A stretch of 64,000 nt of DNA from an uncultured Candidatus Saccharibacteria bacterium (GTDB taxonomy: Bacteria; Patescibacteriota; Minisyncoccia; Phycocordibacterales; UBA12445), in assembly GCA_964649715.1 (NCBI GenBank), contig CAZYTH010000005.1, positions 1,765 to 65,764 of the forward strand, read 5' to 3'. Each line of letters starts with the position of its first letter. Position 1 is the first letter of the stretch. Position numbers and translations under genes: made by a program. Positions 3,659 through 49,473 of this stretch are shown one piece after another. The notes under the pieces are model-generated. The model was not told the DNA's origin. It did no database searches and worked only from the letters and a program-made list of their open reading frames with translations.

Positions 3659-6600
3659 TTATTTATATTCTCTTAGCCAGAAATGTTCATCTTTTATTTT
3701 AATCAAAACTTTTGATGCCCCCTCTGGTCTTAAAAAAGAAAGTGATGAATTTGAACCACTCTGTTGTTTAACCAAAAAGAAACCAATTGCATCTCCTTTA
3801 GAAAAAAGCAAATCATTTATCTTTCCATCATTACGCATACTAAAAGATATTAAGGTATCTGATTTCTCCATGCCAGGGGTATATCTATGTATTTTTGGCA
3901 ATGATTCAAATGTGCCATCACCTTTATTTAAATAAATAATAAGATAACCACGATTACATAATAAGACAATGTCCTTTTTGCCATCATTATTATAATCAAT
4001 TGTAGCGGAACCCAAAATATCTAGAACTAAATCGTCTATATACCTCGTTCCATAATCTTTTCTTTCCTCAAATTCACCGTTGTTTTTTCCTAAGAAAATA
4101 CTAAAAACAGGAGATTGGTAGTCATAATAGACCCCGTTACTTAAACCAGCAGAATATGACGCTACAGCTAAATCAGAAATTCCATCATTGTTAAAATCGG
4201 CAATGATTGGTTTTCCTGGATAAGGTAGCGTGTAATATGTATTTTTCTTTTCTAATTCACCATCTTCATTTCCGAGCATTATTGCAATCGTACTTGTATT
4301 AAAATCAGAAGCAACAACATCACCAAATGTATCATTATTTATTTTGCCCGCTGTTAAGTATGCTTGTGCGACAGAATTGGTTGAGAATTGTTCGTCAAAA
4401 TTTGGATTTCCGTCATTTTTCAAACCGCCATTTTTCAAAACAGTAATTCCTGGAGTCCCCGCCACGATATCAATCTTTCCATCTCCATTTATATCAATAA
4501 TATCCAAATATTGGAAATAAGGAGAGTCTGTTCCAAAATAGATAGGCTGTTTAAATGTATTATCACCCTTGTTCATAACAACCGAAACATTTCTGTCATC
4601 ACCGACAGCAACTATATCAGCCTTTCCGTCACCGTCCAAATCCCCTATTTTTACTTTGCGTAGTCTCCATCCAACTGAAAATTCAGATACATTGTATTTA
4701 AAACCATCGATATTTTCAGTCCCATTTTGATTACTCAAAAAAACAGAAATTGAGGAAGCCTTCTTATTTGCTGTCACAAAATCAGGTATGCTGTCATTGT
4801 TGAAATCATAAATATCAATACCCCATGTTTCAACATCAGTACCATTGCTTCTAATTAATTGTTTAAGTTCTTTATAGTCTAAAGAGCTAGTCGTTTCGCT
4901 ATTTGCCTTAATCAAAGAGACACCATACATAACAACATTATTACCTTCTTTTTTTGTCATTCGAAGCGGAGATGTAAGGACACCCTTTGGATCAAAAGCT
5001 ATCTTTATTTCTTTATCATCATGCTTAACACGAAATCCGATATCAACAAAATCGACAAAAGGCAAACTACAATCTTTTGTTCCTGTCATTAGTTTTGTTT
5101 TTTCACAATTGCTCGTTTGGGTAAAAGTTTCTGTGGTGCATTTTGTTGCAGGATCAGGAGTCCATGTTGTATCAACACAATCCCCAACATTCACGGTCAC
5201 GCTCTTTGAATCACTTCCCCCGGGACCTTCACAAGACAGTGTGAAGGTTTTGCTTTCTCTTAAGCTTCCTGTGGACTGAGAAGAGTCAAGGGTTCCTAAT
5301 GTTCCAGGAGCTAAAGTACCCGACCAACCAGTACCACTTCTTGTACAAGATGTGGCGTTTTTGGCGGTGTATCTGATTGTTGTGGCTGTGTTGTAATCAA
5401 CAAAACCGTGACCAACCGTCAGAGTGACTTCTGGTGGTTTTATGCTTACAGTTTTTGAATCTTCTACTTTTGCACCATTTATTCCAATACATTCAACCTT
5501 GTATGTTTTTGAGGTGGTGAGGTTGCCAGTAGAGAAACTTGATAAACTTGTGTAGCTACTTGACCAATCCCCTGACCAATCCCCAAGTCTCCTACAAGAA
5601 ATAACGTTTGTTGTCGTGTATGTTAGTGTTGCTGGCGTATTATAATCAACGAGTTCTTTGTCGACTGTGAAGTTTAAAGTTGGTGAATCTAAAGGCAAAC
5701 TACAATCTTTTGTTCCACTAATACCTGTTCTAGTCGAACCACACTCTGTACCCGTTTGGGTGAAAGTTTCTGTAGTGCATCTTGTTGCAGGGTCAGGAGT
5801 CCATGTTGTATCAACACAAGCCCCGACATTCACGGTCACGCTCTTTGAATCACTTCCCCCGGGACCTTCACAAGACAGTGTGAAGGTTTTGCTTTCTCTT
5901 AAGCTTCCTGTGGACTGAGAAGAGTCAAGGGTTCCTAATGTTCCAGGAGCTAAAGTACCCGACCAACCAGTACCACTTCTTGTACAAGATGTGGCGTTTT
6001 TGGCGGTGTATCTGATTGTTGTGGCTGTGTTGTAATCAACAAAACCGTGACCAACCGTCAGAGTGACTTCTGGTGGTTTTATGCTTACAGTTTTTGAATC
6101 TTCTACTTTTGCACCATTTATTCCAATACATTCAACCTTGTATGTTTTTGAGGTAAAAAGATTACCAGTAGGGAAACCTGATGCACTTGTGTAACTACCT
6201 GACCAATCCCCAAGTCTCCTACAAGAAGTAACGTTTGTTGTCGTGTATGTTAATTTTGTTGATGTATTGTAATCGACTGAATCGTTCTCGACTATGAAAT
6301 TTAGAGTTGGGGCTCCTGGTTCTGCAACAGAAACAACTACCTCTTTTTCAACATCACTACCTCCTGGGCCAGAACAATTCAGTCTGTAGGTTTTGCTTTC
6401 TGTTAAGCTTCCTGTGTCCCAAGAAGAGCTAAGTGCCCCTGATGATGCATTAGGAGGTAACGAGCCACTCCAATCTCCGCTTTTTGTACAGGATGTTGCG
6501 TTTTTAGCTGTATATTTAAGATTGGTTTTTTCTCCATAATTAAGATTTTGTTTAGTAGCCTCTAATGTAACAACTGGAGGGTTTATACCTATTATTACGT

Positions 6601-13996: not shown

Positions 13997-14395
13997 ATGC
14001 CAGAGATATTTTCACAAGTGTTAGGATATAAAAAAATTTTTAGTATCTTTCCCGAATTATATAACTATAAAGAATTCTCCCCTCTCCTTCTTAGGGTCAC
14101 CCTCGCTACCACACTAATTGTTGTCGGCTGGAAATTTTTTTCAAAAAAAACTGGTTGGCGTGGAGTTAACGTTGTTATAGGAATAGTTGAGATAGGAACA
14201 GGGGTCTTGCTCGTACTAGCAGCGTACACTCAACTCGCCGCTTTACTCTCTGTAATAATATCCATTATGAGCATAATCGCTGGCATAAGAAAGGGGGAAG
14301 GATATTTTTTTTGGCAACATCTACTAACGCTGGCAATTTCTATATCTCTGCTTCTTACCGGACCCGGGATTATGTCTCTGGACTTACCCCTTTAA
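13997..14395 (+). CDS. Small multi-pass membrane protein (DoxX-like)
   Basis: 132 aa, four hydrophobic helices. Assignment to DoxX is by topology only. Confidence 0.4.
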   Translation: MPEIFSQVLGYKKIFSIFPELYNYKEFSPLLLRVTLATTLIVVGWKFFSKKTGWRGVNVVIGIVEIGTGVLLVLAAYTQLAALLSVIISIMSIIAGIRKGEGYFFWQHLLTLAISISLLLTGPGIMSLDLPL

Positions 14396-14441
14396 CAATC
14401 TCCAAAATTCCACCAACATATGGTGGAATTTTTTTACCTGT

Positions 14442-15848
14442 TTGACACTCGCCACCAGCAAAGATAGGATAAAAAGAAATAGTTATTTGAAAATACTGAC
14501 AAACATCGAAAAGGAGGTTTTTGTGGATAACTGGTTAGAATTGGATTACAAAAGTCCAAGCGCTGAGGAAATCTTTTGCATAAAATTTTTTGACAGATTT
14601 ATTATTGGTCAACAAAGAGCGAAAGAAAAAATCGCTTCAAATTTAGCCACATGGAAACATGGACTTTCAGACAAAGACAAACCTGCTTCAATTCTCCTTC
14701 TTCCAGGACCTTCTGGCGTCGGAAAAACATATCTTGTCCGTGTCTTTGCAAAACTTCTTATCGGAGATATGAACGCCTTCACCAGAATAGACTGCTCAAA
14801 TCTTCAAGAAAGTCACACCATCTCTCGTCTCCTTGGTTCCCCTCCCGGATATGTTGGATACAGTGAGGAATCCGAGATTTCTCAAGAGAAACTTGACCGC
14901 CACTATGAAGACAGGCATCCACAAAAACCAACAGCGGAAGAAAAAAGAAAACTAGAAGAATTAAACGACAAACTTTTTGAGCTTGCTCAAGAAGTTGACG
15001 ATCTTCAGTTTAAACTCTCCGAAGAAAAAGATGTAATAAAAAAAAATGAGCTTTCCAAGCGGATAAAGGCTAAACAGAGAGAATTCTTAGATATTCACAA
15101 AAAGCAAGAAGAATTTATCAAAAGATCCGAAAAAAACAAAGCAAGATGTCCTTCTATCCTTCTATTCGACGAGATTGAAAAGATTCATCCAGCGATCACA
15201 AGAGCCCTGCTTCCTATCTTTGATACAGGTGAAACAAAACTTGCGAATGGGAAAATAGTTAACTTTAGGAATTGTTTCATCTTTATGACCTCCAATATCG
15301 GAGCAAGAAAACTTGCCGACATGCAAAGGGGCAAAGGAAAGATAGGAATCTTCACAGAAACAACTCAAAAAGAAAAAGAAGAAGATAAAAACATCTACCA
15401 AACGGTAATCGAAGAAATTACTCACTCCGAACACTTCCCGACAGAGCTTATTGGACGAATTGGCAAAGAGAATATTGTGATATTCCATTCTCTAAAAGAA
15501 TCTGGAATCAGAAATATCATTGAGCTTCAGATAAAAGAGATGGAGAGAAAAATTCAAATTGCCTCTCCCGGAACAAAGCTAATTTTTTCTCAACCATTAA
15601 AAGATTTTCTTTTTACAGAAACACAAGATCCCGTGAACAAAGCCCTCGGAGCCAGACCTATTGAAAATGTGATTAAGTCAAAGATACTAAATCCTCTAAT
15701 GAATCTGATTATTAAAGGTGAAGAAGGCGGAATCATTCCCGGAGACATAATAAAAATTGATATAAAAGAATTCACGAAAAACGGAGCAAAAAAGAGTAAG
15801 GTCGTTATTGAAAAAGTAAAAGATCAAAATAGAATTGACATCATTTGA
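14442..15848 (+). CDS. Stand-alone AAA+ ATPase related to the ClpA/ClpB second nucleotide-binding domain (D2), with an inserted coiled coil of about 85 aa
   Basis: IIGQQRAKEKIASNLATWKHGLSDKDKPASILLLPGPSGVGKTYL and LLGSPPGYVGYSEE match Clp D2. Walker B ILLFDEIEK lies about 100 residues later, versus about 17 in ClpB. Sensor region FMTSNIGA and C-terminal IGRIGKENIVIFHSL are conserved. TTG start per ORF track. Confidence 0.7.
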   Translation: MTLATSKDRIKRNSYLKILTNIEKEVFVDNWLELDYKSPSAEEIFCIKFFDRFIIGQQRAKEKIASNLATWKHGLSDKDKPASILLLPGPSGVGKTYLVRVFAKLLIGDMNAFTRIDCSNLQESHTISRLLGSPPGYVGYSEESEISQEKLDRHYEDRHPQKPTAEEKRKLEELNDKLFELAQEVDDLQFKLSEEKDVIKKNELSKRIKAKQREFLDIHKKQEEFIKRSEKNKARCPSILLFDEIEKIHPAITRALLPIFDTGETKLANGKIVNFRNCFIFMTSNIGARKLADMQRGKGKIGIFTETTQKEKEEDKNIYQTVIEEITHSEHFPTELIGRIGKENIVIFHSLKESGIRNIIELQIKEMERKIQIASPGTKLIFSQPLKDFLFTETQDPVNKALGARPIENVIKSKILNPLMNLIIKGEEGGIIPGDIIKIDIKEFTKNGAKKSKVVIEKVKDQNRIDII

Positions 15849-15851
15849 TGG

Positions 15852-15882
15852 CAAAAAGGAGACCAAAAGGTCTCCTTTTTTT
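15852..15882 (+). terminator. Rho-independent terminator (ggagacc-aaaa-ggtctcc plus T7)
   Basis: Perfect 7 bp stem and T-run directly after the AAA+ gene stop. Confidence 0.7.
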
Positions 15883-15966
15883 AATGCGTCCACCATCAAA
15901 GTCATTAGGTAAACTCAATCCAATTAAATAATCAAATCTTAAACCAAGAAGTAAATTTGGATATTT

Positions 15967-17490
15967 TTATTCTGTATATCTTATTCTTTTTTTGAGCTTC
16001 TCAAATAGCACATTTATTTTGACCTGAAAATATCTTTTTTCTTTTTCATAATCTGGATTGGTCTTCCTGTTTTCGTCTAGAATAAGATTATCCCCTAAAA
16101 TTTTTTCTATTTCAGACAATCTCCACAATAGTCTATAAATATTATCAATCTTTTTATTTAATTCCCTTTTTTTATTAATAGAAATTTCAGATAAATCGCT
16201 GTCCTTCAATTCCGCTTTCTGTGCTTTTAATTCTTCTAATGAATTACTTAGTCGTTCCCTTGGGTTTAGTGAATTAACCTCTTGCGCAATCTGTTCTATT
16301 GATAAATAATTCTGTTCTATCGATCCATTTTCCAAGGACTCTTGAATCCTTCTTTCTGTTTCCATGGTAATTTTATCCTTTTTGGTGGCGACGTCCTCTT
16401 GTTTGGGTGTTTCTTTCTTGTTTAGTTTTTTGCAATATTCTTCAATTTTTTCCGATGAGATGAGTTCTCTTAATACCCCTCTTATTATTCTTTTTTTCAT
16501 GTCAAAATTATCTGCTTCCGGACCTCCTGGAGGCATTCCCGCATTGACCCAATCTTTATATCTAGCCATCAAGTGACGCAGAGGTATTATGACCAAAACA
16601 AGATCGTCCACTTTTTTCTCTAAAGTAAGCGACATTTTCTGTTTGGACATTTCTGTTTGTTTGCCCTTTTTCTCCCCTACATCTTTGTTGGTATTTATCG
16701 TAAATTGTATACCTGTGCTTTTGGAATCAGATTCGACGTCAACTCCTCTTAGCCTATTTTTTGTTTCTACAATAAAATCTATTTTATATTCAACATCCTC
16801 AAAAAAATCTACATCTTTTACATCAAATTCCGCTTCATGATCGATTTCCAACTTCTTTAAAATTGTTTTAACAAGTTTTTCGGCTACAAATCCGCCTCTC
16901 TCTAGACTTTCTTTTTTATTTTCAGGTAGCCTTGTTCCGTATGCTTGCTTTTTTCCTTCATCAGTAAATCCGCTGCTGTGTTCGTTTATCGCTATTTGTT
17001 CGTCCAATAATTCTCCGATTAGAGACGAAGTTCTTTCTACGATATATCTCTTTCTTACATCGCGTGGAACAGTAAGAGGATCGAGATTATAATCATTGCC
17101 CCAATCATAATCTGTAAAAATTGTACCCAGAGTTACTCTTATGTCACCCACAAAATAAAAGTCTCCTTCTTTTTTAACATTTCGAACGTTTCTGCCCTCA
17201 ACCTCTTCTATTTCTACCAACTCATTGTTGTCTATTTTTCTAAGATTTTCCCTGAGACCTTTCATTATCTCTAATTTTTTTTCTTGAATCTCATATATTT
17301 CTGTCTGTTTTTCCGGGGTATTCAAAAAATACTCAGATCTGCTTTCGATGAGTTTAATTTTGTCTCTCAGTATCTCCGGGTCTTTCTCTCTAAATTCACC
17401 TTTTATATTTTTGCCATAATCTCTTAGAGCTATTTTTTCAAAAAATTCTCTCATATTTTTTATTAAATTTTTATTGTTATACTTTAGCAA
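15967..17490 (-). CDS. Hypothetical coiled-coil protein (507 aa)
   Basis: Long ORF with coherent, charged, Lys/Glu-rich composition and heptad-like segments. No recognisable catalytic motif. Confidence 0.45.
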   Translation of the reverse strand: MLKYNNKNLIKNMREFFEKIALRDYGKNIKGEFREKDPEILRDKIKLIESRSEYFLNTPEKQTEIYEIQEKKLEIMKGLRENLRKIDNNELVEIEEVEGRNVRNVKKEGDFYFVGDIRVTLGTIFTDYDWGNDYNLDPLTVPRDVRKRYIVERTSSLIGELLDEQIAINEHSSGFTDEGKKQAYGTRLPENKKESLERGGFVAEKLVKTILKKLEIDHEAEFDVKDVDFFEDVEYKIDFIVETKNRLRGVDVESDSKSTGIQFTINTNKDVGEKKGKQTEMSKQKMSLTLEKKVDDLVLVIIPLRHLMARYKDWVNAGMPPGGPEADNFDMKKRIIRGVLRELISSEKIEEYCKKLNKKETPKQEDVATKKDKITMETERRIQESLENGSIEQNYLSIEQIAQEVNSLNPRERLSNSLEELKAQKAELKDSDLSEISINKKRELNKKIDNIYRLLWRLSEIEKILGDNLILDENRKTNPDYEKEKRYFQVKINVLFEKLKKRIRYTE

Positions 17491-17650
17491 AAATAACTAA
17501 ATTTATAAATAAATTTAAAAAACACCCACAATTAAAATTTCAATATTATCTCCTGCGAGAAAGAATTTTTAAGCCCAGCAGAATTATTCCAATATATGGA
17601 CAGTCCAATCGTCGGATCCACCTTGGGTGGATACTCAGTCTGGTTTCGAA

Positions 17651-17690
17651 CTGCCTCTACCTATTGGTAGACAGGTTCCGGCAGGCAGGC
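17651..17690. repeat. Shorter copy of the composite palindromic element (ctgcctctacctattggtagacagg ... ggcaggcaggc)
   Basis: Aligns with 2535-2595. Preceded by a tRNA T-arm-like ggtttcgaact segment. Confidence 0.5.
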
Positions 17691-17727
17691 TAACGAAAGC
17701 TATGGGTAATGGCTTTCTCTGGGCAGA

Positions 17728-17752
17728 CAAAAATCCGCTCATCGCGGATTGT
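17728..17752 (-). terminator. Hairpin aatccgc-tcatc-gcggatt directly downstream of the tRNA-Lys 3' end
   Basis: 7 bp stem followed by a short T-run on the minus strand. Probable tRNA transcript terminator or processing hairpin. Confidence 0.35.
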
Positions 17753-17755
17753 TTG

Positions 17756-17828
17756 TGCGCCCAGCAGGATTCGAACCTGCGACCATTTGCTTAAAAGGCA
17801 ACTGCTCTACCAACTGAGCTATGGGCGC
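17756..17828 (-). tRNA. tRNA-Lys (anticodon UUU)
   Basis: Reverse complement GCGCCCATAGCTCAGTTGGTAGAGCAGTTGCCTTTTAAGCAAATGGTCGCAGGTTCGAATCCTGCTGGGCGCA is near-identical in architecture to E. coli tRNA-Lys. Anticodon loop CTTTTAA. Confidence 0.85.
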
Positions 17829-17891
17829 ATTTAATAACTAATGTGTAAAAAACAATAACAAAATTATCGCTACCTGTCCAATGACAACACG

Positions 17892-17916
17892 ATGAGCGAG
17901 GTTGAACCTCACTCAT
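17892..17916. repeat. REP-like 25 bp imperfect palindrome atgagcgaggttgaacctcactcat overlapping the RAYT stop codon
   Basis: Seen directly. Related copies at 18395-18419 (reverse complement) and 18627-18651 (direct). Confidence 0.7.
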
Positions 17917-18622
17917 CATTTTGTTCCATAATTAAATCTATGTCTCCATCATTCTTATTGTCCCTAATCCAATCTTCCATTTCTTTTTTATACTTCGCTT
18001 CCCCGCCAAGATAACCACTCATCCATTCTCGCGATGTAACAGATGGAAAATTTTTTATTCCTATATAATCTAAATAGCTACTCCATCTATAGTGATTCAA
18101 TTGTTCTATTTTTTCGGATGGCAATCCCTTGGATTTCTTTATGGGGTTATTGTGTATATAAAAAGGCAACCAACCAAAATGAGCTTCTTTTTTTATGTGG
18201 ACCGCCTTAAATCTTCCCTGAAACAAACCCCCCACTCTCTCATATTTTTGATTAAAATACATAGTATATCCAGTCCCCAGTTTCTGCATAAATTTTACGA
18301 TTCCATTCTCTTGTCTTTGTTTCAAAACCAAATGAAAATGATTGGGCATCAATGTAAAAATAATAACATCAACCAACCTTTTTCTATTCTTCACAAATGA
18401 GTGAGGTTCAACCTCGCTCATTGATCTATTATGTTCAATGTCACGACCTAAATTCTGAACTGGGGAATTATTATTAAATTCATAAAGACAGTGAATAAAT
18501 CTAAGATGGTCCTGCTTATCTAAAAAGATGTTTCTTTTTTCTACACCCCTATTATAAATGTGATAGAATTCATCTTCTATAAATTCCGGTTTTTTCTTTG
18601 CCATAAACAAGAATACTATCAT
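17909..18622 (-). mobile_element. REP-associated tyrosine transposase (RAYT; IS200-like Y1 HUH transposase)
   Basis: EFYHIYNRGVEKRNIFLD N-terminal motif. HUH motif MPNHFHLVL. Catalytic Tyr region GYTMYFNQKYERVGGLFQGRFK. Bracketed by REP palindromes in the RAYT arrangement. Confidence 0.75.
18395..18419. repeat. REP-like palindrome copy inside the RAYT coding sequence (encodes MSEVEPHS in frame)
   Basis: Exact reverse complement of the 17892-17916 copy. Confidence 0.7.
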
Positions 18623-18626
18623 CCTT

Positions 18627-18651
18627 ATGAGCGAGGTTCAACCTCACTCAT
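18627..18651. repeat. REP-like palindrome copy 5 bp upstream of the RAYT start codon
   Basis: Differs from the 17892-17916 copy only at the central base. Confidence 0.7.
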
Positions 18652-18730
18652 AAAATAGGAAAAGAAAAAAGGCGTTCGGTTTAAAACCGAAACGCCCTGT
18701 GTAGGCTTTCGCCCGATGTGTGTGTGAAGA

Positions 18731-19198
18731 CTACTTCTTCTTCTTGCCGCCCTTACCCTTGTTCTTCTTGTTCTTGCCCCCATCGGAGGAGCCGCCCTTC
18801 CCTTTCTTCTGCTTCGGGGGCTTCACCTTGGGATGCCAAGTGCCGTTGGCCTTCCCCGCTTCGATGCCGGCCCAACGAGCCGGCTTGGCCTTGGACTTTT
18901 TCTTCGACCCAACGCGGGAACGATTCAGGATTGACGGTCGATACTCCTCCTGAATCAAACCCTTGATGTAGGCCGAGTGGATTCGACGAACCTGAAAAGC
19001 CTCCCTTTCCTCGGCGTCGAAAATCGCGCCGTTCTGGACTTCGATGATGTTGCCGAGCGTGAAGTCCTTGTTGACGGTCTGAACCTTCCAGTCTCCTTCA
19101 TTGTCGGGAAGATTGGAGAGATTCTCGAGAATAATCCCGAGACCCTCAAACACCGAGAGGAAAAACTTGATTACCTCACCGACACGGAAGTTCACCAT
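18731..19198 (-). CDS. Hypothetical protein (155 aa) with GC3-rich codon usage and a Lys/Gly-rich C-terminal tail (KKKSKAKPA...KGKGGKKKK)
   Basis: Coherent ORF in a GC-rich segment. Consensus sigma70 promoter and AAAAGGAGGG ribosome-binding site upstream. Basic tail suggests nucleic-acid binding. No family recognised. Confidence 0.55.
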   Translation of the reverse strand: MVNFRVGEVIKFFLSVFEGLGIILENLSNLPDNEGDWKVQTVNKDFTLGNIIEVQNGAIFDAEEREAFQVRRIHSAYIKGLIQEEYRPSILNRSRVGSKKKSKAKPARWAGIEAGKANGTWHPKVKPPKQKKGKGGSSDGGKNKKNKGKGGKKKK

Positions 19199-19245
19199 AA
19201 AAATAGCCCTCCTTTTAAAATTTTGATGTTCTTAATTCTCTTTTA

Positions 19246-19274
19246 ATTATATACCTTTATTATGAATCTGTCAA
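19246..19274 (-). promoter_or_regulatory. Consensus sigma70 promoter TTGACA-17-TATAAT for the 155 aa gene
   Basis: Minus strand reads ggtggtgTTGACAgattcataataaaggtaTATAATtaaaag, about 45 nt upstream of ribosome-binding site AAAAGGAGGG and the ATG at 19198. Confidence 0.6.
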
Positions 19275-19435
19275 CACCACCAAATAAAATTGTCTAAAAT
19301 ACAGATAATCAACGACTATCATCCCTTTTGTCATTCCCGACTTGATCGGGAATCCAGAAATTGTCTTTGAAACTGGATCCCCGTTTTCACGGGGATGACA
19401 ACTAAAACCGAGTCGCACTAAGAAAAAACATGCAA

Positions 19436-19492
19436 CCCTGATTGGATAAAAATATATTCATCTAAAATGAATATATTTTTATCCAATCAGGG
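19436..19492 (-). terminator. 26 bp perfect inverted repeat with 5 nt loop, followed on the minus strand by ttgcatgtttttt
   Basis: ccctgattggataaaaatatattcat-ctaaa-atgaatatatttttatccaatcaggg. Unusually long stem. Could also be a protein-binding palindrome. Confidence 0.5.
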
Positions 19493-19502
19493 TAAAGAAA
19501 AA

Positions 19503-19529
19503 GGCGCTGAAGCTTGAGAGCTTAGCGCC
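19503..19529 (-). terminator. Rho-independent terminator (ggcgctaagctc-tcaa-gcttcagcgcc plus TTTTTCTTT) after the 292 aa gene
   Basis: Hairpin plus T-run on the minus strand, 50 nt after the stop at 19581. A smaller hairpin ggagatg-gac-atctcc (19540-19560) precedes it. Confidence 0.55.
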
Positions 19530-19580
19530 TGAAATGGACATTTTGTTGATGGAGATGTCCATCTCCGATTCTGCACTAGG

Positions 19581-20459
19581 TTACTTCTTGTTGGTCGGGC
19601 GGAGTTTGGATAGAAGGTTGGCAACCACCGGAACCTTCTCGATCTGTGCCCTGAATCCCTCATCCATCCACTTGAAGTGAGCGAACAGGAATCCGCCGTT
19701 ACCGTTCTGATTCTTGCGCCGTTCCAAGATCGGAACATCGCGCTCGAGACCGAGCTCCACCTTGCCTTCAACGAGCTGAAGAGTCCGGACCTTGGCCCAG
19801 ATCTCCCCATCGAAGCCTGACTTGGTGGAGATTACCGCACAGGGGCCCGCCGACCCGTGGATGTGGAGTTCTCCCCGAATGACACGAGGCCAGTCGAAGA
19901 TTTCCTTTCCGTCGGCGAGTTTCTTCTTCTTGGTGAAGCCACGGGAACCCCATTGCCAGCGAGCCTCGGAGATGGGCAGGGTGATCAGGATCTCGGAGAT
20001 CCGCTTGGCCAACTTCAGCTTAAGCTGGTCAGCGACGGCCTTGGGCAGGATCCGGAATTCGCTACGGGAAAGACTGACCGGAACGCCCTCGGAGGTCTCG
20101 GCCTCCATCTGACCATCGGCCTTGACCGAGATCAAGACCAGGTGACCGCACTTGACCGCAGCACCGACATAGCCGGACCGCGGATCGATGGGGGGCAGCT
20201 CCTTCAGAGTGCCGTCTTCCATCTTCTTCTGGCGGCGGATGTTGGCCATGCCGTAGAGACCGTTGAGCTCGAACTGCTCGATCGGGCGAAGGGAGGTCTT
20301 CTGGACCGCCTCCATGACCTGGTCGGTGCCGGCGATCTGAAGATCGACGAGATCTTCGGTTTCCTTGAGGATGAACATGGGCTTGGCGGATGGATCGTCC
20401 TTGAAGGCGACCCATTCCAACACGAACCGTGGTCTGCTGTTCTGATTCTTGTTCTCCAT
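19581..20459 (-). CDS. Hypothetical protein (292 aa) with GC3-rich codon usage
   Basis: Long ORF with protein-like composition. Opposite-strand ORFs are Asp/Gly/Leu-rich antisense artefacts. Ribosome-binding site AAAGGAGGG lies 8 nt before the ATG. No family recognised. Confidence 0.55.
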   Translation of the reverse strand: MENKNQNSRPRFVLEWVAFKDDPSAKPMFILKETEDLVDLQIAGTDQVMEAVQKTSLRPIEQFELNGLYGMANIRRQKKMEDGTLKELPPIDPRSGYVGAAVKCGHLVLISVKADGQMEAETSEGVPVSLSRSEFRILPKAVADQLKLKLAKRISEILITLPISEARWQWGSRGFTKKKKLADGKEIFDWPRVIRGELHIHGSAGPCAVISTKSGFDGEIWAKVRTLQLVEGKVELGLERDVPILERRKNQNGNGGFLFAHFKWMDEGFRAQIEKVPVVANLLSKLRPTNKK

Positions 20460-20763
20460 AACAATTGCCCTCCTTTGGGCTTCGAAATTCAGAATGTACC
20501 CTTTCGCTAAACTACCTCTTCCTCCAAAGAAGATTTGATTAAGCGAAGGACACGCGCACGGCCGGGTGAAATTCCACGGCCAATTTTTAGAACAGTTTCC
20601 CTTCCTCCTTTTTCATTTAACATAGAATTGACATCGCTTTCCTTGTGACGGAATTTCTCCCGCCCAAGATGGCAGTGCCGAGTCCGGATGTTGTTGTTGA
20701 CTTAATCCACCTCCTTCTTTTTGAAATAACCTTTATTGCAATGAACAAACTTGATTTTGGTTT

Positions 20764-20792
20764 ATAATACACAAAACTATATTTTTGTCAAG
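20764..20792 (-). promoter_or_regulatory. Near-consensus sigma70 promoter TTGACA-17-TATTAT that would give a ~300 nt GC-rich 5' leader for the 292 aa gene
   Basis: Minus strand reads gtcTTGACAaaaatatagttttgtgTATTATaaacc. Confidence 0.45.
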
Positions 20793-20928: not shown

Positions 20929-21666
20929 TTACAGATTTAGGATAAAACCCTCAAGGGCGTTATCAAATTCAGCCACCCCTCTTCTTGAGTCGTGATACAA
21001 AGATACAAGGTCACCATATAATTTTTTTAATTCTTCTTCACTAAAATTTTTGGAGTATTTTTTGGCCTTCATCAAAACAAAAGGGGCTATCTTTAGTTTT
21101 TCCACCGCCCTATCGCCTTTGTCTTCAGCAATCTTTGCCAAAAGCATATTTTTCACCTGCCAAACAAACTTCCAAAAAACTTCCTCGGGAGCGATGTCTT
21201 CTCTAATGGCTTTCTGATACAAAACCCATATTTTCTTTTTATCTTTTTCTCCGAAAGCGTCTGATATAGAAAAAATATTAAAACCCCTATCTTCCTTTTC
21301 TAGCCCGATTGGCAAATCAAAAGTAAAAATTTTCTCCGCACCCTTGGCTAGTTTAATGAAATCACCCTTTTTTATATTATCTTCAACAAAAATAAAAATG
21401 TTCGGAGAAGATCTAATCTCGTCTAATCTATCCAAAACAACTTCCTTCGCTTCATCATTTTTAAAAATATCCTCACAAATAATGAGAAATTTATCGGAAA
21501 AAAGACTTTGGCTACCTAAATGACCCAAAAAAGAACCTTTATCAAAAACATCCTCTGTGAATCTAAAAATATTTGAGTGAGGATTTTTCTTAAAAAAAGA
21601 TTCAACCGTCGTCTTTAATTTGGCGTGACTTTTTATTGTATCTTTGCCGTGAAATAAATACAGCAT
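20929..21666 (-). CDS. holA: DNA polymerase III delta subunit (HolA)
   Basis: MLYLFHGKDTIKSHAKL N-terminus and 245 aa size. Sits upstream of polA in a replication gene context. Moderate similarity pattern to HolA. Confidence 0.6.
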   Translation of the reverse strand: MLYLFHGKDTIKSHAKLKTTVESFFKKNPHSNIFRFTEDVFDKGSFLGHLGSQSLFSDKFLIICEDIFKNDEAKEVVLDRLDEIRSSPNIFIFVEDNIKKGDFIKLAKGAEKIFTFDLPIGLEKEDRGFNIFSISDAFGEKDKKKIWVLYQKAIREDIAPEEVFWKFVWQVKNMLLAKIAEDKGDRAVEKLKIAPFVLMKAKKYSKNFSEEELKKLYGDLVSLYHDSRRGVAEFDNALEGFILNL

Positions 21667-28229: not shown

Positions 28230-29021
28230 TTAGGAAACTACTGCACGAGCCCGCAAGCGCGAGAACGAATCGCTGGTGCGGCACCAATCCACGTAGAACT
28301 TGCCAGCGCTCCAGCCCGCGCCCGGGACGCTGCCATCGGAATAGCGGGAGCCGCTACAGAGGGTAGTGCTGTTGATGTCCAAGTGGTGTTTGGTAAGCCG
28401 GAAGTAGAAGAGCTCGAGAAGACGGCGCTCGAGGAGGGTCATGGTCTGGATCTTTTGTTTCTCGATATCGAGAGCCGAAAGATTCTTGAGATCTTTGGGC
28501 ACTTCGATGGAGTCTTTGATCCAGATGGCATAGGACTTCGTGATGTTTCTCTCTTCCTTGCCCTGGTCCATGTCCTTGTCGAGATCGTCGCCGTACTTCC
28601 AGGTGGACATACCGAGCTTCTTCTCGCCGTCAGAGATCATTTTGTGTGTCAGTGACTTGGTGATGAACATCAGGAAGTCGAAACCTTGTTTGTAGTCCGG
28701 GATATCCTCCCTTTCTTTCAGGTCCAAGCCGAGAACTTCCTTATAGAATTTCTTCCAGATCCACTGGAATTCGTCAGGAACATTGACCATCTGTCCACCA
28801 AGGATGGCAGACATCTTGGGTGTGAAAGTGGCCAGCACTTTCTTGCCGAGAATCGCCTCTCGAAGTCGGGCAATCCTTTCGGGTTGTTTCATACCAATGA
28901 AGGCTTGCAGTTCTTCGGGTGTGACCTCATTGTAGACAACCGAGAGAGCTTTTAGAACTGCGCAGTCAACTTCTCGCGCGAGTCCTCCTTGCTTTTGGAC
29001 ATTCCCGTTTTGCTTGGGCAT
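28230..29021 (-). CDS. Unknown-family protein P1 (263 aa), paralog of the two downstream genes, with foreign GC3-rich codon usage
   Basis: Shares W.KFY.K.LG.D, acidic cluster ... K.YAIW(I/V)(K/R)D, TLLE and TLC.GS.Y motifs with ORFs 29315-30142 and 30139-31035. The coding sequence is about 55% GC while its flanks are AT-rich. Confidence 0.6.
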   Translation of the reverse strand: MPKQNGNVQKQGGLAREVDCAVLKALSVVYNEVTPEELQAFIGMKQPERIARLREAILGKKVLATFTPKMSAILGGQMVNVPDEFQWIWKKFYKEVLGLDLKEREDIPDYKQGFDFLMFITKSLTHKMISDGEKKLGMSTWKYGDDLDKDMDQGKEERNITKSYAIWIKDSIEVPKDLKNLSALDIEKQKIQTMTLLERRLLELFYFRLTKHHLDINSTTLCSGSRYSDGSVPGAGWSAGKFYVDWCRTSDSFSRLRARAVVS

Positions 29022-29096
29022 TTCCTTTCTCCTTTTTAAAAGAACTTACTTGGGTCTCGCCAAGTCAATCGCGAAAAACACTTTCGCTTTATCGGA

Positions 29097-29125
29097 AGAT
29101 TACAGTAGATTGGTCGGTCTGTCAA
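29097..29125 (-). promoter_or_regulatory. Sigma70-like promoter TTGACA-17-TAATCT for P1
   Basis: Minus strand reads aaggTTGACAgaccgaccaatctactgTAATCTtccg, about 75 nt upstream of the ATG at 29021. Confidence 0.5.
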
Positions 29126-29146
29126 CCTTTGTCCTCCACTCATACT

Positions 29147-29162
29147 TAATGTAGTATAGAAA
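29147..29162. promoter_or_regulatory. Candidate operator: palindrome tacta-atg-tagta within shared 16-mer taatgtagtatagaaa upstream of P1
   Basis: Identical 16-mer at 31124-31139 upstream of the P3-P2 operon. 5 bp inverted repeat with 3 nt spacer. Confidence 0.45.
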
Positions 29163-29276
29163 AGTAGTCGTTAGTTTTTAGTTGATAGTTTTTAGAAAAA
29201 CAGACAATTTTTTACTGTCGCAATACCACTGAGGTTTTTTAAAATACGCACATTCATAAATATAGGTTTAATATAG

Positions 29277-29302
29277 AAAACCCCGCAATTAATGCGGGGT
29301 TT
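29277..29302 (-). terminator. Terminator hairpin aaaccccgc-aattaat-gcggggttt after the P3-P2 operon
   Basis: Perfect 9 bp stem. T-rich tract follows on the minus strand. Confidence 0.6.
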
Positions 29303-29314
29303 CAGACCTAAAAA

Positions 29315-30142
29315 TCACTTAGAAACAACTTCTCGTATCCTAAGACGGTGATCTTTTGTGTCTAGTTTAAAAGGATGAATAACAAGTAGATTAGTTCTTG
29401 TGAGCATCATTGGACAAAATTCTTGATAACTCACAGTAGGAACAAATTCTCTCTTTGTCTCTTTGTCGTAGTAAACACTACCAACACAAAAAGTTTGTGA
29501 ATCAACATCTAAATGTTCCCCTGTTTCTTCAAAATACTTAAGATGGAAAATAAGTCTTTCCAAAAGATTGATGCTGTTTATTCCAAGACTCAGCGACATT
29601 TCAGGGCTTAGTTGACGATGTGCACTATCAGACCATTCACAATCCCTAACCCAAATTGCATAAGCTGATGTTGGTTTTCTTACACTAACGCAATCAATAT
29701 CAACTTCAGCAGGAATTCTATTTTCATAACTAAACAGGCTGATATTTTTAAACAACCCAACATTGTTTCCTCTAAAAACTCGAAAAACATGTTCAAGAAT
29801 TAAATCCTTTGGAATGATAATAAGCCTATCAAATCCCTTTCTTAGTTCAGGTATGTTCTCTTTTAAAAAAACAAGATCAATTCCAAAATATTTCCTATAA
29901 AACCTTTTCCAATCTTCAATCAAAATTTCTATTTCATCGAGTATTTTTGTTCCGACGCAACAAGTAATGAGAAATTCTCTAAAACTTTTACGAAAAGACT
30001 CCGGGTTATTTCTTGCTCTTGTTAAAACTTTTTCAATAATATCCTCTTCTTTTGGTAGAGATTTCAATATTGTGATATCAAAATCTCTAAAATTTTTGAT
30101 ACACTTAGACACAAAGGCACCAATATTTTCACTTACCTTCAT
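29315..30142 (-). CDS. Unknown-family protein P2 (275 aa), tandem paralog
   Basis: Motifs EDWKRFYRKYFGIDL, VDIDCVSVRKPTSAYAIWVRD, NLLERLIF, TFCVGSVYYD. Its start overlaps the P3 stop by 4 bp (operon). Confidence 0.6.
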   Translation of the reverse strand: MKVSENIGAFVSKCIKNFRDFDITILKSLPKEEDIIEKVLTRARNNPESFRKSFREFLITCCVGTKILDEIEILIEDWKRFYRKYFGIDLVFLKENIPELRKGFDRLIIIPKDLILEHVFRVFRGNNVGLFKNISLFSYENRIPAEVDIDCVSVRKPTSAYAIWVRDCEWSDSAHRQLSPEMSLSLGINSINLLERLIFHLKYFEETGEHLDVDSQTFCVGSVYYDKETKREFVPTVSYQEFCPMMLTRTNLLVIHPFKLDTKDHRLRIREVVSK

Positions 30143-31035
30143 TTGTCAATCTCCTTAAATTCAATTACAGAGCGTGCTCGTATCTTTATTTGATATGCCT
30201 CATCAAGAGAAATAATTATACTTTGATTAGACTCGTCAAACTGTTTGTATTGAACTCCTTTTATAGTGAGACGGGTTCCATTCATATATACGATAGGAAC
30301 AAAAACATTCCACAAAGGAATATTTGAAACATTTTCTATATCCTTCTTGTAAACGGTACCCAAACACAATGTGGCTCCATTGCAATCAAGAATATTTTTT
30401 TTATTCTCGTCTAAACATTTCGCAAACAAAACAAAGTATTCCAAAAGAGTTATTCCATTTATTCCTATCCGACTTAGCAAATCTGGATAACCCTGAAGAC
30501 TGTTTTCTGCATCTAACTCATCTTTAACCCAAACAGCATAACCTTTTTGCTTGGAATTTCTAACATTTTCTGTGATTTCATCAAAATCATCTGTCTTTGT
30601 ACTCATACTCCACCTAAAACAAGGGATAAACTCCACCAAAAAAGAATACATTCTTTCTGTTGTCATCCCCTTGGGAATCATCAGAAGCCTACTGTAGCCA
30701 GGATTTTTTTTTGGAATAAGAATATCGGAAAGAAATTCTGGTCTTATACCAAAATATTTTTGATAAAACATCTTCCAATCCAATACGATATACTCTATGT
30801 CACGTTCCGTAAAAGGAATAAAGGTTTTTTGGATAATAGAAATTATTTCTATTATCCTAGAAACTTCACCTGGAGAAATCTTTTGATTACAATTTATCTC
30901 TTTCTTCAAAACAATCAAGGATTCCTTTATTATTAGTAAGGTGGTGTCTGAAACCTGAATTTTCTCGTTCATTTGTACATCCTTATTTTCAAGGTTCTTT
31001 TTTATAACAAAAGCAAAAATAAGACTTTTAAGCAA
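30139..31035 (-). CDS. Unknown-family protein P3 (298 aa), tandem paralog
   Basis: Motifs LDWKMFYQKYFGIRP, DDFDEITENVRNSKQKGYAVWVKDE, TLLEYFVLF, TLCLGTVYKKD. Confidence 0.6.
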   Translation of the reverse strand: MLKSLIFAFVIKKNLENKDVQMNEKIQVSDTTLLIIKESLIVLKKEINCNQKISPGEVSRIIEIISIIQKTFIPFTERDIEYIVLDWKMFYQKYFGIRPEFLSDILIPKKNPGYSRLLMIPKGMTTERMYSFLVEFIPCFRWSMSTKTDDFDEITENVRNSKQKGYAVWVKDELDAENSLQGYPDLLSRIGINGITLLEYFVLFAKCLDENKKNILDCNGATLCLGTVYKKDIENVSNIPLWNVFVPIVYMNGTRLTIKGVQYKQFDESNQSIIISLDEAYQIKIRARSVIEFKEIDK

Positions 31036-38702: not shown

Positions 38703-39803
38703 TTACTTTATCATTGGCATCAAAAGGTACATAAAAGAATCATTGCCTACTGGTTTTATTATTACAGGCCTCTGGTGTCCATTGAAAGTAATAACAACAC
38801 TATCTTCCTTAATACTACTGAGACATTCCAATATAAATTTGGCGTTGAAACTCATATCTATCTCTTCACCCTCTAAAGTAGCATCAACCCTTGTAACGCT
38901 TTCTCCTTTGTCTTGATTCTTTGAACTAACTTCAAACAGAGAATCAGATGGTATTATTTTAAAATTAACTTGGTTGAATTTATCGGAAAAAATGTTTGAT
39001 ATTTTTATAGAATCTATCAGTTCTTCTTTCAAAATAACTACTTCTGTTTTCTTTCCTTTTGGGATTATTTGTCTATAATCAGGAAAAATACCCCCGACAA
39101 CCCTTGATGTAAAATAAAGGCCTGAGGAGACAACCGACATTTGATTTTTGTTAAAAATAAGTTCTATATCCTCATTGTGGTTTTCTAAAATTCTAACCAA
39201 CTCATTTGCATTTTTTATAGGTATTATTGAAGATGAAAAACCTGTAGTATTACCTATATCTATTCTTTTTTCAGCTAACCTTGAAGAATCTGTTGATACA
39301 AAATAAAGGTAACCACCGTCAAAATAAATATAAACACTTGATATTTCAGGTTTTATGTCTGAAACCAGTGCTGAATAAGAAACCGATTTTATTCCCTCTA
39401 TTAGCTTGAAAGGACTTAATTTTAAAGATTCTTCTTTTTCTATCCTAGGAATAAGAGGAAATTCATCTGAAGGAAAACTCTTTATTAAGGTTGAATTTCT
39501 TTTTGTTGATACAGATAAATTATTGTTTAGAGATTCCATCTTAACAGTATCGTCACCATCCAACATCTGCAAAAATCCGCTCAATAAGTAAGCTGGAACA
39601 GCAACACTTCCTGGTTTTTCCACTCTTGAAGAAATATTAACCTCAAGACCAATATCAAGATTGGTTGCTTTAAGTGTAAGTGTTTTTTCTTTTGCTTCCA
39701 GAAGTATTGATTCTAGTATAGGTAAAGAGAGATTTTTACCAGAAATCTTTCCTACTTGAAAAACAGCTTCTTTTAATTTTTCTTTTGAACAATCAATTTT
39801 CAT
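38703..39803 (-). CDS. dnaN: DNA polymerase III beta subunit (sliding clamp)
   Basis: MKIDCSKEKLKEAVFQVGKISGKNLSLPILESILLEA matches the DnaN N-terminus. 366 aa. Immediately downstream of dnaA. Confidence 0.85.
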   Translation of the reverse strand: MKIDCSKEKLKEAVFQVGKISGKNLSLPILESILLEAKEKTLTLKATNLDIGLEVNISSRVEKPGSVAVPAYLLSGFLQMLDGDDTVKMESLNNNLSVSTKRNSTLIKSFPSDEFPLIPRIEKEESLKLSPFKLIEGIKSVSYSALVSDIKPEISSVYIYFDGGYLYFVSTDSSRLAEKRIDIGNTTGFSSSIIPIKNANELVRILENHNEDIELIFNKNQMSVVSSGLYFTSRVVGGIFPDYRQIIPKGKKTEVVILKEELIDSIKISNIFSDKFNQVNFKIIPSDSLFEVSSKNQDKGESVTRVDATLEGEEIDMSFNAKFILECLSSIKEDSVVITFNGHQRPVIIKPVGNDSFMYLLMPMIK

Positions 39804-40178
39804 TTTTTATAGATAGTAATGTGTTTATAATTCATCAAGCACTTTCTACTAATTTATATTAAATTATTTATTATATATAAAACTACTATTATTATTAGAA
39901 CTGTTGATATGTTGATAAATCGATTAAGTTATTACTGCTAAACGTTTTTTTTGAAGAACAACTGTGGAATAACAGGGCAAAAGGTTACATATAAAAAGTG
40001 GAGAAGAAAAAGATAAAATATTTGTTAAAAGTTTTAAACAACTTTTCCACTCTTTTGTCGTCAGGTAATACATACAAAATTCACATCTTTTTCCACAAAG
40101 TTATCAACAGAAAGAATACAGTTTGATAAAGAACAACGAACCCAAACGTTTACATATCCACTATTTGTTTTTGGTATT
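39804..40178. promoter_or_regulatory. Candidate oriC: AT-rich dnaA-dnaN intergenic region with degenerate DnaA boxes and an AT-rich unwinding tract
   Basis: Box-like 9-mers ttatcaaca (40101), tgttgataa (39910), atatccact (40154), tgtggaata (39963). Very AT-rich tract 39860-39900. Position between dnaA and dnaN. Confidence 0.5.
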
Positions 40179-41615: not shown

Positions 41616-41648
41616 AAAAAAAGAAACTAGACTTTTCTGTTAATAGCA

Positions 41649-41668
41649 TGTGGATTATGTGTGGATAA
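41649..41668. promoter_or_regulatory. Two adjacent DnaA boxes upstream of dnaA (tgtggatta and consensus tgtggataa)
   Basis: Seen directly. atgtggattatgtgtggataac lies about 35 bp upstream of the dnaA start. Confidence 0.6.
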
Positions 41669-41793
41669 CCCTCAAGAACTGTTGATATCTATCCCATTGC
41701 TTTTTTTCTGTTTTTCTGCTAACTCAGAAAAAACAGAAAAATATCATTATTTAGAGGGTCCTTAAAAAATATTTTTTTTGTTATTTTTTAACA

Positions 41794-41822
41794 TTGATTA
41801 TTTTAAATTTTTGTTTTATACT
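41794..41822 (+). promoter_or_regulatory. Sigma70-like promoter TTGATT-17-TATACT upstream of rpmH
   Basis: acaTTGATTattttaaatttttgtttTATACTacaaccc ATG. Confidence 0.45.
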
Positions 41823-41829
41823 ACAACCC

Positions 41830-41964
41830 ATGTCAAAAACATACAATCCAAAGAAACTTAAGAGGAGTAAAACCCACGGTTTTTTAAAGAGAAAAAGTTC
41901 TGTTGGGGGGAAGAAGACTCTTTTGAGGAGAAGAAGAAAAGGCAGAAGTAAGATTGCGCTTTAA
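41830..41964 (+). CDS. rpmH: 50S ribosomal protein L34
   Basis: 44 aa MSKTYNPKKLKRSKTHGFLKRKSSVGGKKTLLRRRRKGRSKIAL matches L34. Below the ORF-track length cutoff, so found by hand. Confidence 0.85.
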   Translation: MSKTYNPKKLKRSKTHGFLKRKSSVGGKKTLLRRRRKGRSKIAL

Positions 41965-42048
41965 TTTGTCTTACCTAAGAATCAAGTGAAAATTACGAGC
42001 CAAATGGTTCGTAGTTTTGTTTTTTGATATAATTAAGCAACCAATAAT

Positions 42049-42372
42049 ATGGATTTTAAAACAAACAAAGAACTTTTTGATTATGTTTTCAAAAAAGGCG
42101 GTGGTGTCTACTCCCCTTTTTTATCCTTAAAGTTTTTTAACTCAACTGTTTCTAAGAAAAATAAATTTTTTTTTGTGGTATCTTCAAAAATTTCTAAGAA
42201 AGCGACTGTAAGAAATCTGTTTAAGAGAAGGGGTCGGAATATCATTGCTAAAAACATAAAAGGAGGTGTTTCTGGTATATTTTTTGCAAAGAAAGGTATT
42301 TCAGAGCTTACTTTTTCTCAACTTGAGAGCGAAATGATCTCTTTATTAAAAAGAGCGAAAGTGTTAGGATAA
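42049..42372 (+). CDS. rnpA: Ribonuclease P protein component
   Basis: Basic 107 aa protein with ...FFVVSSKISKKATVRNLFKRRGRNI... (RNR motif region) between rpmH and yidC. Confidence 0.75.
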   Translation: MDFKTNKELFDYVFKKGGGVYSPFLSLKFFNSTVSKKNKFFFVVSSKISKKATVRNLFKRRGRNIIAKNIKGGVSGIFFAKKGISELTFSQLESEMISLLKRAKVLG

Positions 42373-42410
42373 GCAAATCGTTATTTTTTTTATTAAAATA
42401 ATACTTTTAA

Positions 42411-48780: not shown

Positions 48781-48819
48781 GTTTCAAAATTAAAATTTAA
48801 AAATCAAAAGGTTATAAAA

Positions 48820-49467: not shown

Positions 49468-49473
49468 ATATTC

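Follow-up and report, generated by a model that had tools for sequence, protein, structure and literature searches.

A positionally conserved module of GC-rich orphan genes in an AT-rich Patescibacteria chromosome

The 64,000-nucleotide (nt) stretch analyzed here (contig CAZYTH010000005.1, positions 1,765 to 65,764, from an uncultured Candidatus Saccharibacteria bacterium), referred to below in its entirety as the window, carries two GC-rich genes, X and Y, that together with a small upstream open reading frame (sORF) form a compact minus-strand module between holA and a tRNA-Lys gene. The module is of a known kind, the compositional outlier composed of ORFan genes, and is unusual in being GC-rich within an AT-rich genome, in keeping its chromosomal position, and in remaining an outlier past the point of synonymous saturation. 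Its GC richness peaks in the coding sequences of X and Y, recurs for X in every lineage, and represents a present-day equilibrium. The reading that we tentatively place first is that the module is resident, lineage-specific and very highly expressed, that its GC-rich coding sequence is maintained in place, and that its alleles are exchanged among strains. The three genes of the module, with lengths in amino acids (aa) and isoelectric points (pI), are as follows.

18731–19198, minus strand: gene Y, 155 aa, 17.2 kDa, pI 10.2
19581–20459, minus strand: gene X, 292 aa, a soluble orphan protein of 32.8 kDa, pI 9.4
20507–20698, minus strand: sORF, conserved, about 63 aa, 7.2 kDa, pI 10.5, within the 270-nt "leader" of X

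In their composition, the coding sequences of both X and Y are alien to the rest of the genome, as a preliminary description of this DNA had proposed. Gene X has a GC fraction of 0.584 and a GC fraction at third codon positions (GC3) of 0.775, and the corresponding values for Y are 0.543 and 0.744, as compared with GC3 values of 0.29–0.36 for the genes around them (the Y1 transposase, holA, polA and a 507-aa open reading frame, ORF). The codon set is even more extreme than had been noted: X and Y together employ AAG for 92% of their Lys codons, versus 21% in the background (where AAA accounts for the other 79%), and ATC for 83% of their Ile codons, versus 13%. ATA and TTA, which in the background make up 50% of Ile and 24% of Leu codons, respectively, are absent from both genes, and AGA specifies 4% of their Arg rather than 61%. 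The earlier estimate of about 32% GC for the rest of the sequence is not borne out, the window as a whole being 35.7% GC, and the possibility raised with it that the whole contig might share one GC3 profile does not hold either: 58 of the 62 long ORFs lie between 0.21 and 0.40, and the four above 0.40 are X, Y, a separately located gene termed g263, and one short ORF that overlaps a longer gene. Two further GC-rich ORFs are nested out of frame within X. The spacers of the module are AT-rich, the one that separates X from Y having a GC fraction of 0.356 and the one upstream of X a fraction of 0.369, and have the native appearance previously ascribed to them.

Expression signals delimit two autonomous minus-strand transcription units, one leading from a promoter through the sORF and X to three hairpins, and the other from a promoter through Y to a terminator. 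The signals are listed here in the order of transcription.

20764–20791, minus strand: promoter of the sORF-X unit, TTGACA-16-TATTAT, located about 330 nt ahead of X and matching the consensus at 11 of 12 positions
20468–20476, minus strand: ribosome-binding site of X, AAAGGAGGG, 8 nt from the ATG
19435–19565, minus strand: three stacked hairpins 3′ of X, fold energy −78.6 kcal/mol, z-score −10.2
19565–19531, minus strand: first hairpin after X
19530–19502, minus strand: terminator with U-tract after X
19493–19435, minus strand: perfect 27–28 bp stem with U-tract after X, an inverted repeat of 27 nt with 100% complementarity
19320–19420, strand not assigned: X-Y spacer containing a pair of short hairpin repeats with GC cores (gtcattcccga...tcgggaatcc and ggatccccg...cggggatgac)
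19246–19274, minus strand: promoter of Y, TTGACA-17-TATAAT, scoring 12/12 in the consensus scan
19207–19215, minus strand: ribosome-binding site of Y, AAAGGAGGG, 8 nt from the ATG and identical to that of X
18669–18698, minus strand: intrinsic terminator of Y

The opinion that these signals are unusually strong and native in appearance is thus upheld, with some corrections. The Y promoter and the two ribosome-binding sites are as previously described, whereas the X-unit promoter has the reported TTGACA and TATTAT elements at a spacing of 16 nt, or of the reported 17 nt only when the −10 element is shifted by one base. Likewise, two stacked terminators do follow X, but they form part of a series of three hairpins, and the perfect stem is longer than the 26 bp originally given. 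Several of these elements are conserved in L001, a related locus: the X-unit promoter region is approximately 76% identical to its L001 counterpart, the long hairpin after X is retained (86.7%), and the Y promoter and 5′ untranslated region are 85% identical even though the Y proteins themselves are only 45% identical. At gathering thresholds, Rfam returns tRNAs only, and its below-threshold "miRNA" matches correspond to the long terminator hairpin. The start regions of X and Y (20451–20476 and 19190–19215) are 88% identical over 26 nt and follow the pattern AAAGGAGGGC-ATT-TTATGG-GAAC, a possible sign of a common element for translational control or of a duplicated start region.

The address of the module, polA-holA / module / tRNA-Lys, is shared by all relatives whose flanking sequence suffices to judge it (L001 and L013). 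Two conserved neighbors anchor it in the window.

20929–21666, minus strand: holA (DNA polymerase III delta), the upstream anchor, Pfam DNA_pol3_delta_C, E 1.4e-12; at the same position in L001 and L013
17755–17828, minus strand: tRNA-Lys(UUU), part of the conserved backbone, an 88% match to L013

In L001 the gene order is holA, leader and sORF, X, Y and a SurA_N gene. In L013 it is polA, holA, a long leader with the sORF, X, an unrelated 112-aa ORF, tRNA-Lys, SpoU, Fpg, a Mur ligase, RuvA and S20, an arrangement that is co-linear with the window. The X protein of the window is 64% identical to that of L001 and 31% identical to that of L013, and the respective values for holA are 64% and 59%. 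The window itself is origin-proximal core chromosome (dnaA, dnaN, yidC, ruvB, ruvC, tyrS); a cluster resembling a type IV secretion system, with a TraG P-loop/VirB4-like protein and a PrgI family protein, adjoins dnaA-dnaN-yidC (46981–49982 and 38703–43130). The L013 spacer between holA and the sORF (1650–2250) is about 600 nt longer and has a promoter-like site of its own. It also contains, at 2045–2124, a below-threshold match to the type III hammerhead ribozyme (28.7 bits versus a gathering cut-off of 48.5; E 7e-4), to which nothing in the window is comparable.

The sharp steps in composition at the module boundaries might be suspected to come from the assembly or binning of the genome, an AT-rich contig having been fused with GC-rich pieces from a different organism, and one of the relatives, L009, does lie in a metagenome-assembled genome (MAG) named Candidatus Gastranaerophilales. 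Nevertheless, an artefact of this kind is extremely unlikely. A Logan contig is 100% identical to the window over 19198–20647 and reproduces both X junctions, and L009 (GCA_028691575.1, JAQUYY010000195.1), a 4-kb contig assigned to another NCBI MAG, matches 15231–19251 at 97.6% identity, a range that includes the Y junctions; because independent assemblies reproduce them, the GC/AT junctions are not chimeras. This speaks to the question of the junctions, placed at about 18700 and 20720, that the preliminary description had raised. The same architecture also appears in divergent relatives from other samples, and the L009 contig is probably mis-binned.

Relatives of the two proteins are few. X yields five proteins in a search of 5.8 billion clusters, to which an exhaustive hidden Markov model search of 1.84 billion representatives adds a single remote homologue, P0007, which is 28% identical across 265 residues. 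The only relatives of Y are P0006 (96% identity) and a 145-aa protein of L001 and L002 (45%) whose gene adjoins X. Neither X nor Y has a tblastn match in phages, a relative in IMG/VR, or a match in PHROGs, and plasmids and GTDB species genomes, which were searched for X only, contained no relative of it. Scans of GTDB genomes with X patterns and with holA patterns returned nothing, and a scan of JGI metagenomes found L010 again and no other locus. Among approximately 15 billion proteins and the virus and plasmid sets, no homologue was found in a GC-rich context. Judged from these matches, homologues of X and Y appear to be confined, in the collections searched, to a small clade of Patescibacteria, or Candidate Phyla Radiation (CPR), and the lineages known to carry the module number only four (the window, L001, L010 and L013), which is a thin sampling.

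Across these four lineages, the GC3 values are as follows.

Window: X 0.775, sORF 0.44, neighbors 0.29–0.36
L010: X 0.63, sORF 0.38
L001: X 0.49, sORF 0.28, neighbors 0.22–0.29
L013: X 0.66, sORF 0.45, neighbors 0.28–0.41

The GC3 of the sORF roughly tracks that of X at lower amplitude, and the top two lineages are the same for both. When X of the window is compared with X of L001, 61% of the codons that specify the same amino acid differ, and full randomization would produce 62%, so the synonymous sites of X have turned over completely. It is because these sites are saturated between lineages that the GC3 of X can be regarded as a present-day equilibrium: a value of 0.775 is not the remains of a transfer that predates the lineages, and must either have been maintained in place or belong to an allele that the window re-imported from a source at high-GC equilibrium. 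In the same comparison, X and holA are equally diverged (0.64 each), which fits vertical co-descent. The preliminary description had allowed that the genes might prove to be ordinary housekeeping proteins that use GC-rich codons in close relatives as well. The second half of that statement is correct, in that the GC excess does extend to relatives, but ordinary housekeeping proteins they are not.

If the composition is maintained in place, it could be that selection on the coding sequence or on the mRNA of genes with very high output keeps GC-rich codons where they are. Candidate benefits would include stability of the transcript against AU-directed RNases, the avoidance of A-runs and of spurious AT-rich signals, and the use of a low-demand subset of tRNAs; the GC excess would then not be left over from import. 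A raised G+C content of bacterial genes, brought about by selection or by conversion, has been described as a genome-wide phenomenon with modest effects (PMC4478552; PMC4450053). The module is similar in that its synonymous GC lies above an AT-biased background and in that X displays a link to recombination. It differs in that the shift is gene-specific, very large (0.30 to 0.77), limited to a few orphan genes, and situated in a streamlined, symbiont-type genome. A literature search for GC-rich gene classes in CPR genomes yielded nothing relevant.

Alleles of X are exchanged between strains by homologous recombination, as seen in one strain group. Comparison of three flank haplotypes from the L001 group reveals 0–2 differences in the 882 positions of the X coding sequence. 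Between L001 (900–2290) and L002, the block from promoter to terminators contains 8 differences in approximately 1,390 nt, none of them at 1274–2200, whereas Y differs at 22 of 438 positions and SurA at 17 of 651. The edges of the exchanged block (L001 800–899 and 2300–2399) cannot be aligned with L002, the latter segment belonging to the X-Y spacer, which varies between strains. On sequence grounds, this pattern marks a recent inter-strain replacement of the X cassette or a gene-specific sweep.

Such a tract also invites the idea that the module is a recombination hot spot in which GC-biased gene conversion, through repeated tracts, has raised GC regardless of function. A recent recombination or sweep tract over the promoter, sORF, X and terminators is directly evident, G-ending and C-ending codons as well as amino-acid composition are all shifted, and recombination is reported to be associated with GC3 in bacteria (PMC4450053). 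We nonetheless consider this explanation improbable, given that the non-coding parts of the tract stay AT-rich. In particular, the AT-rich 27-bp hairpin, which is constrained only by base-pairing, remains AT-rich and conserved within the exchanged block, which argues against a blanket GC-biased process, and Y is equally GC-rich although it lies beyond the identical tract. In addition, the conversion effects reported in bacteria fall far below a rise in GC3 from 0.30 to 0.77.

Several observations weigh against maintenance in place. The AT-rich spacers consist mostly of functional signals, which weakens the apparent match between composition and the boundaries of the coding sequences. X and Y prefer the G-ending codons AAG, CAG and GAG together with CGC and CGG, as well as C-ending codons, and their amino-acid content is shifted too (Gly, Ala, Arg and Pro, GARP, 0.26 versus 0.19), so that the codon shift is unlike classic translational optimization and looks like an origin in a genome of 55–60% GC. 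The gene for ribosomal protein S20, with a GC3 of 0.37, is not GC-rich; expression and GC are therefore not generally linked in this genome, and expression-linked codon bias as a general rule was rejected. The X cassette differs at only 1 of 882 nt between strains in which Y and SurA differ by approximately 2.6–5%, which indicates that alleles do move. The X of L013 (31% identity) is far more diverged than its holA (59%). Y diverges 2–4 times faster than its neighbors in two pairs of close strains (window 18731–19198 versus L009; L001 2473–2910 versus L002), mostly at third positions, which is unexpected under strong synonymous constraint. Finally, the high expression of X and Y and their nucleic-acid binding are properties that we infer.

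Much of this would be accounted for by the main rival, a xenologous replacement of alleles, in which the locus is old but GC-rich alleles were imported recently via the conserved flanks and have not yet ameliorated, the source being an unsampled, GC-richer relative among the Patescibacteria or a mobile element that has long hosted these genes. We regard this rival as unlikely, although it is the strongest of the alternatives. The codon and amino-acid usage resembling that of a 55–60% GC genome, CGN and G-ending codons included, speaks for it, as do the near-identity of the X cassette between strains with diverged flanks, the unalignable junction segments at its edges, and the incongruent divergence of X in L013. 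The rapid evolution of Y would be that of decaying foreign DNA, and the wide spread of GC3 between lineages (0.49–0.78) is likewise in its favor. By contrast, the searches described above offer no homologue in a GC-rich context, and all known flanks are AT-rich. X is exactly as diverged as holA between the window and L001, the sORF is only moderately GC-enriched (GC3 0.44) despite being part of the same transcript as X, and the strain exchange that has been observed took place between AT-rich relatives and not from a GC-rich donor.

The third GC-rich gene, which the preliminary description had overlooked, bears on the question of import from another direction.

28230–29021, minus strand: g263, 263 aa, GC 0.52, GC3 0.67, a separate locus with a C-type-lectin/FGE-like fold

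It is one of three tandem paralogues (28230–31035, minus strand), the other two of which are AT-rich (34% and 29% identity; GC3 0.22 and 0.29). The family has 35 members, and all of those with a taxon name are Patescibacteria (Paceibacterota, Uhrbacteria, Falkowbacteria), which assigns the organism of the window to the CPR; an alignment of 37 sequences yielded a good structural model, with a pLDDT (predicted local distance difference test) score of 81.7. In L018, a homologue of g263 lies beside an RVT_1 gene and has a 122-nt pair of variable and template repeats (VR and TR) in which the template has A at 17 of 17 mismatches, by which criteria the locus is a textbook diversity-generating retroelement (DGR). 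Variable proteins of DGRs that adopt the C-type-lectin/FGE fold include Mtd, TvpA and TaqVP (PMC8144416, PMC11661182), and g263 belongs to a family of such proteins, with the variable region at the C-terminal end of its C-type-lectin/FGE-like fold. Unlike DGR systems, however, g263 has neither a TR copy nor a reverse transcriptase within the 64-kb window (no RVT was found among the tested ORFs). DGR mutagenesis was accordingly rejected as the cause of its composition, and mutagenesis restricted to adenines would in any case not deplete third-position T along with A. Profile-profile comparison revealed no relationship between X and the g263 family, and neither X nor Y shows a relationship to the DGR variable proteins. 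The GC excess is frequent in the family but not universal, as the following loci illustrate.

L015: g263 homologue GC3 0.56, neighbors approximately 0.3
L017: g263 homologue GC3 0.70, neighbors approximately 0.45
L018: g263 homologue GC3 0.59, neighbors approximately 0.57
L019: g263 homologue GC3 0.36, neighbors approximately 0.31

Because the neighborhoods differ between loci, the family is demonstrably mobile, and it is found in genomes of 36–48% GC; such mobility keeps the import of X and Y alive as an explanation.

A more elaborate proposal, to which we give a low probability, is that selection keeps coding sequences of the X, Y and g263 type GC-rich as a second codon dialect. The mRNAs concerned would be decoded by a subset of tRNAs in low demand and withstand AU-directed RNases and, in combination with strong signals, would allow maximal and robust expression when the bulk AT-coded proteome stalls, for instance when the cell starves away from its host or is attacked by agents that target tRNA or RNA. 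Were this true, a streamlined symbiont would possess a codon-partitioned emergency or high-output regulon that includes undescribed basic nucleic-acid-binding proteins.

The preliminary description had itself suggested a captured cargo or selfish module in an acquisition context formed by a transposase associated with repetitive extragenic palindromes (REP), or RAYT, and by tRNA-Lys. The transposase is a neighbor that lies outside the module.

17909–18622, minus strand: Y1 (IS200/RAYT-like) transposase, Pfam Y1_Tnp PF01797, E 3.4e-7, 30.8 bits (cut-off 23)

Both the Y1_Tnp gene and the tRNA gene are indeed next door. The REP-like elements in the window are three 25-nt palindromes, all at the Y1 gene (17892–17916, 18397–18421 inside the ORF, and 18627–18651), and no further copy lies elsewhere in these 64 kb. 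In some respects the module resembles the compositionally atypical genomic islands, with codon usage and GC in X and Y unlike those of the host, a tRNA gene and a transposase nearby, and orphan genes, and two partial duplicates of the tRNA-Lys 3′ end in L013 would make this tRNA an integration hot spot in the clade. A recent capture, whether mobilized by the adjacent RAYT or integrated at tRNA-Lys, is still highly unlikely. Far from being absent at this site in relatives, the module follows holA in both L001 and L013, so the slot is conserved, and synteny is kept across lineages in which holA is only 59–64% identical. The suggestion that the module travels with the RAYT also fails, because the transposase is missing beside it in both relatives, a SurA_N gene taking its place in L001 and the unrelated 112-aa ORF in L013. 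With regard to the tRNA, classical tRNA-integrated islands lie 3′ of the gene, whereas the module of the window lies 5′ of tRNA-Lys on the same strand, that is, on the wrong side. No integrase is present among the tested neighboring ORFs, as had been noted, and neither flanking direct repeats around the module nor a second copy of the tRNA-Lys 3′ end near it was found in the window. Thus the module differs from atypical islands in holding its position without a transposase, in lying 5′ of the tRNA, and in showing neither an integrase nor att-like repeats. It further differs in that its anomaly peaks in X and Y (being mild in the sORF), outlasts synonymous saturation, and is GC-rich in an AT-rich genome, most ORFan islands being AT-rich.

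In L013, where the tRNA-Lys gene is inverted relative to the window, two partial duplicates of the tRNA 3′ end lie downstream of the real tRNA (sites at 3845–3863, 4095–4113 and 4289–4307); these duplicates look like scars of serial integrations, and X of L013 falls outside the interval that they bracket. Between tRNA-Lys and SpoU, 3′ of the tRNA, the window carries approximately 3.8 kb (13997–17490) that is absent from L013. This stretch is AT-rich and contains a 132-aa ORF, a ClpX-like AAA protein with PADLOC matches to DolB and PDC-M37B (E 4e-19 and 2e-17), and a 507-aa orphan, and as a possible tRNA-linked insertion it is more plausible than the GC-rich module.

Returning to the resident module that we prefer, X and Y are real coding sequences whose divergence is greatest at codon position 3, followed by positions 1 and 2, and both are under purifying selection. 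Neither matches a family in Pfam, PHROGs, NCBIfam or PADLOC (where no family is reached at E ≤ 0.1), profile searches of the PDB with X, Y and the sORF returned noise only, and the earlier statement that no family can be recognized is therefore confirmed for these collections. In the absence of a matching PADLOC model, a known anti-phage defense system was rejected for X and Y. The AlphaFold2 model of X failed (pLDDT 40), and fold matches based on it are meaningless. All three proteins are soluble and basic and have neither a signal peptide nor a transmembrane segment. Y is composed of an acidic N-terminal domain (residues 1–92, pI 4.75) and, as previously pointed out, a Lys/Gly-rich tail (residues 93–155, pI 11.5), with 21 Lys and 12 Gly in the last 63 residues; the tail is kept in L001 but varies in length, changing through in-frame indels.

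In bacteria, nucleoid proteins with histone-H1- or HU-like tails include chlamydial Hc1/Hc2 and mycobacterial HupB with its tail. Y is like these in joining a small folded domain to a long, basic, low-complexity tail rich in Lys, Gly and Pro, and in its apparently strong expression. It is unlike them in that its N-terminal domain is acidic, and no HU, H1, Hc1 or other nucleoid-associated protein domain was detected in it by searches of Pfam, NCBIfam, PHROGs and PDB profiles; its DNA-binding is putative. The charge and architecture of the proteins, together with the strong expression signals, suggest, weakly, that X, Y and the sORF product could be abundant cytoplasmic proteins associated with nucleic acids, and that Y might bind through its H1/HU-like tail.

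The sORF had also been overlooked, and the "leader" of X is consequently not non-coding. It is present in all four lineages with upstream sequence, where its changes fall mostly at third codon positions, and was called as a gene by the Joint Genome Institute (JGI) in L010. The C-terminal half of its product is helix-turn-helix-like (VLKIGRGISPGRARVLRLIKSSLEEE), and the protein has no Pfam or PDB match. Its start is preceded by a further conserved element.

20708–20717, minus strand: extended Shine-Dalgarno-like sequence ahead of the sORF, GAAGGAGGTG, present in L001, L010 and L013 as AAAGGAGGTGA

In L001 (approximately 950–975), L010 (approximately 15–40) and L013 (approximately 2215–2240), an in-frame GTG follows directly after GGAG with zero spacing. 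The window copy reads GTG GAT TAA, which places an in-frame stop at 20702–20704, and there is no canonical in-frame start downstream. This odd start could be a case of non-canonical initiation, a pseudogenized start, or a sequencing error.

Compositional outliers are routinely taken as recent horizontal transfers, and here a GC3 of 0.77 is found in a 36% GC genome at a conserved chromosomal address. If the GC content is maintained in place, then gene-specific selection or a biased process would be keeping synonymous sites well away from mutational equilibrium, even where the genome is small and of the symbiont type, and this would call for caution with composition-based calls of horizontal gene transfer in CPR genomes. 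The module may also be of use as a naturally occurring cassette for maximal expression in these organisms, which are hard to engineer. The three basic orphan proteins that it encodes, all of them apparently highly expressed, are candidates for undescribed core biology of this clade of Patescibacteria.

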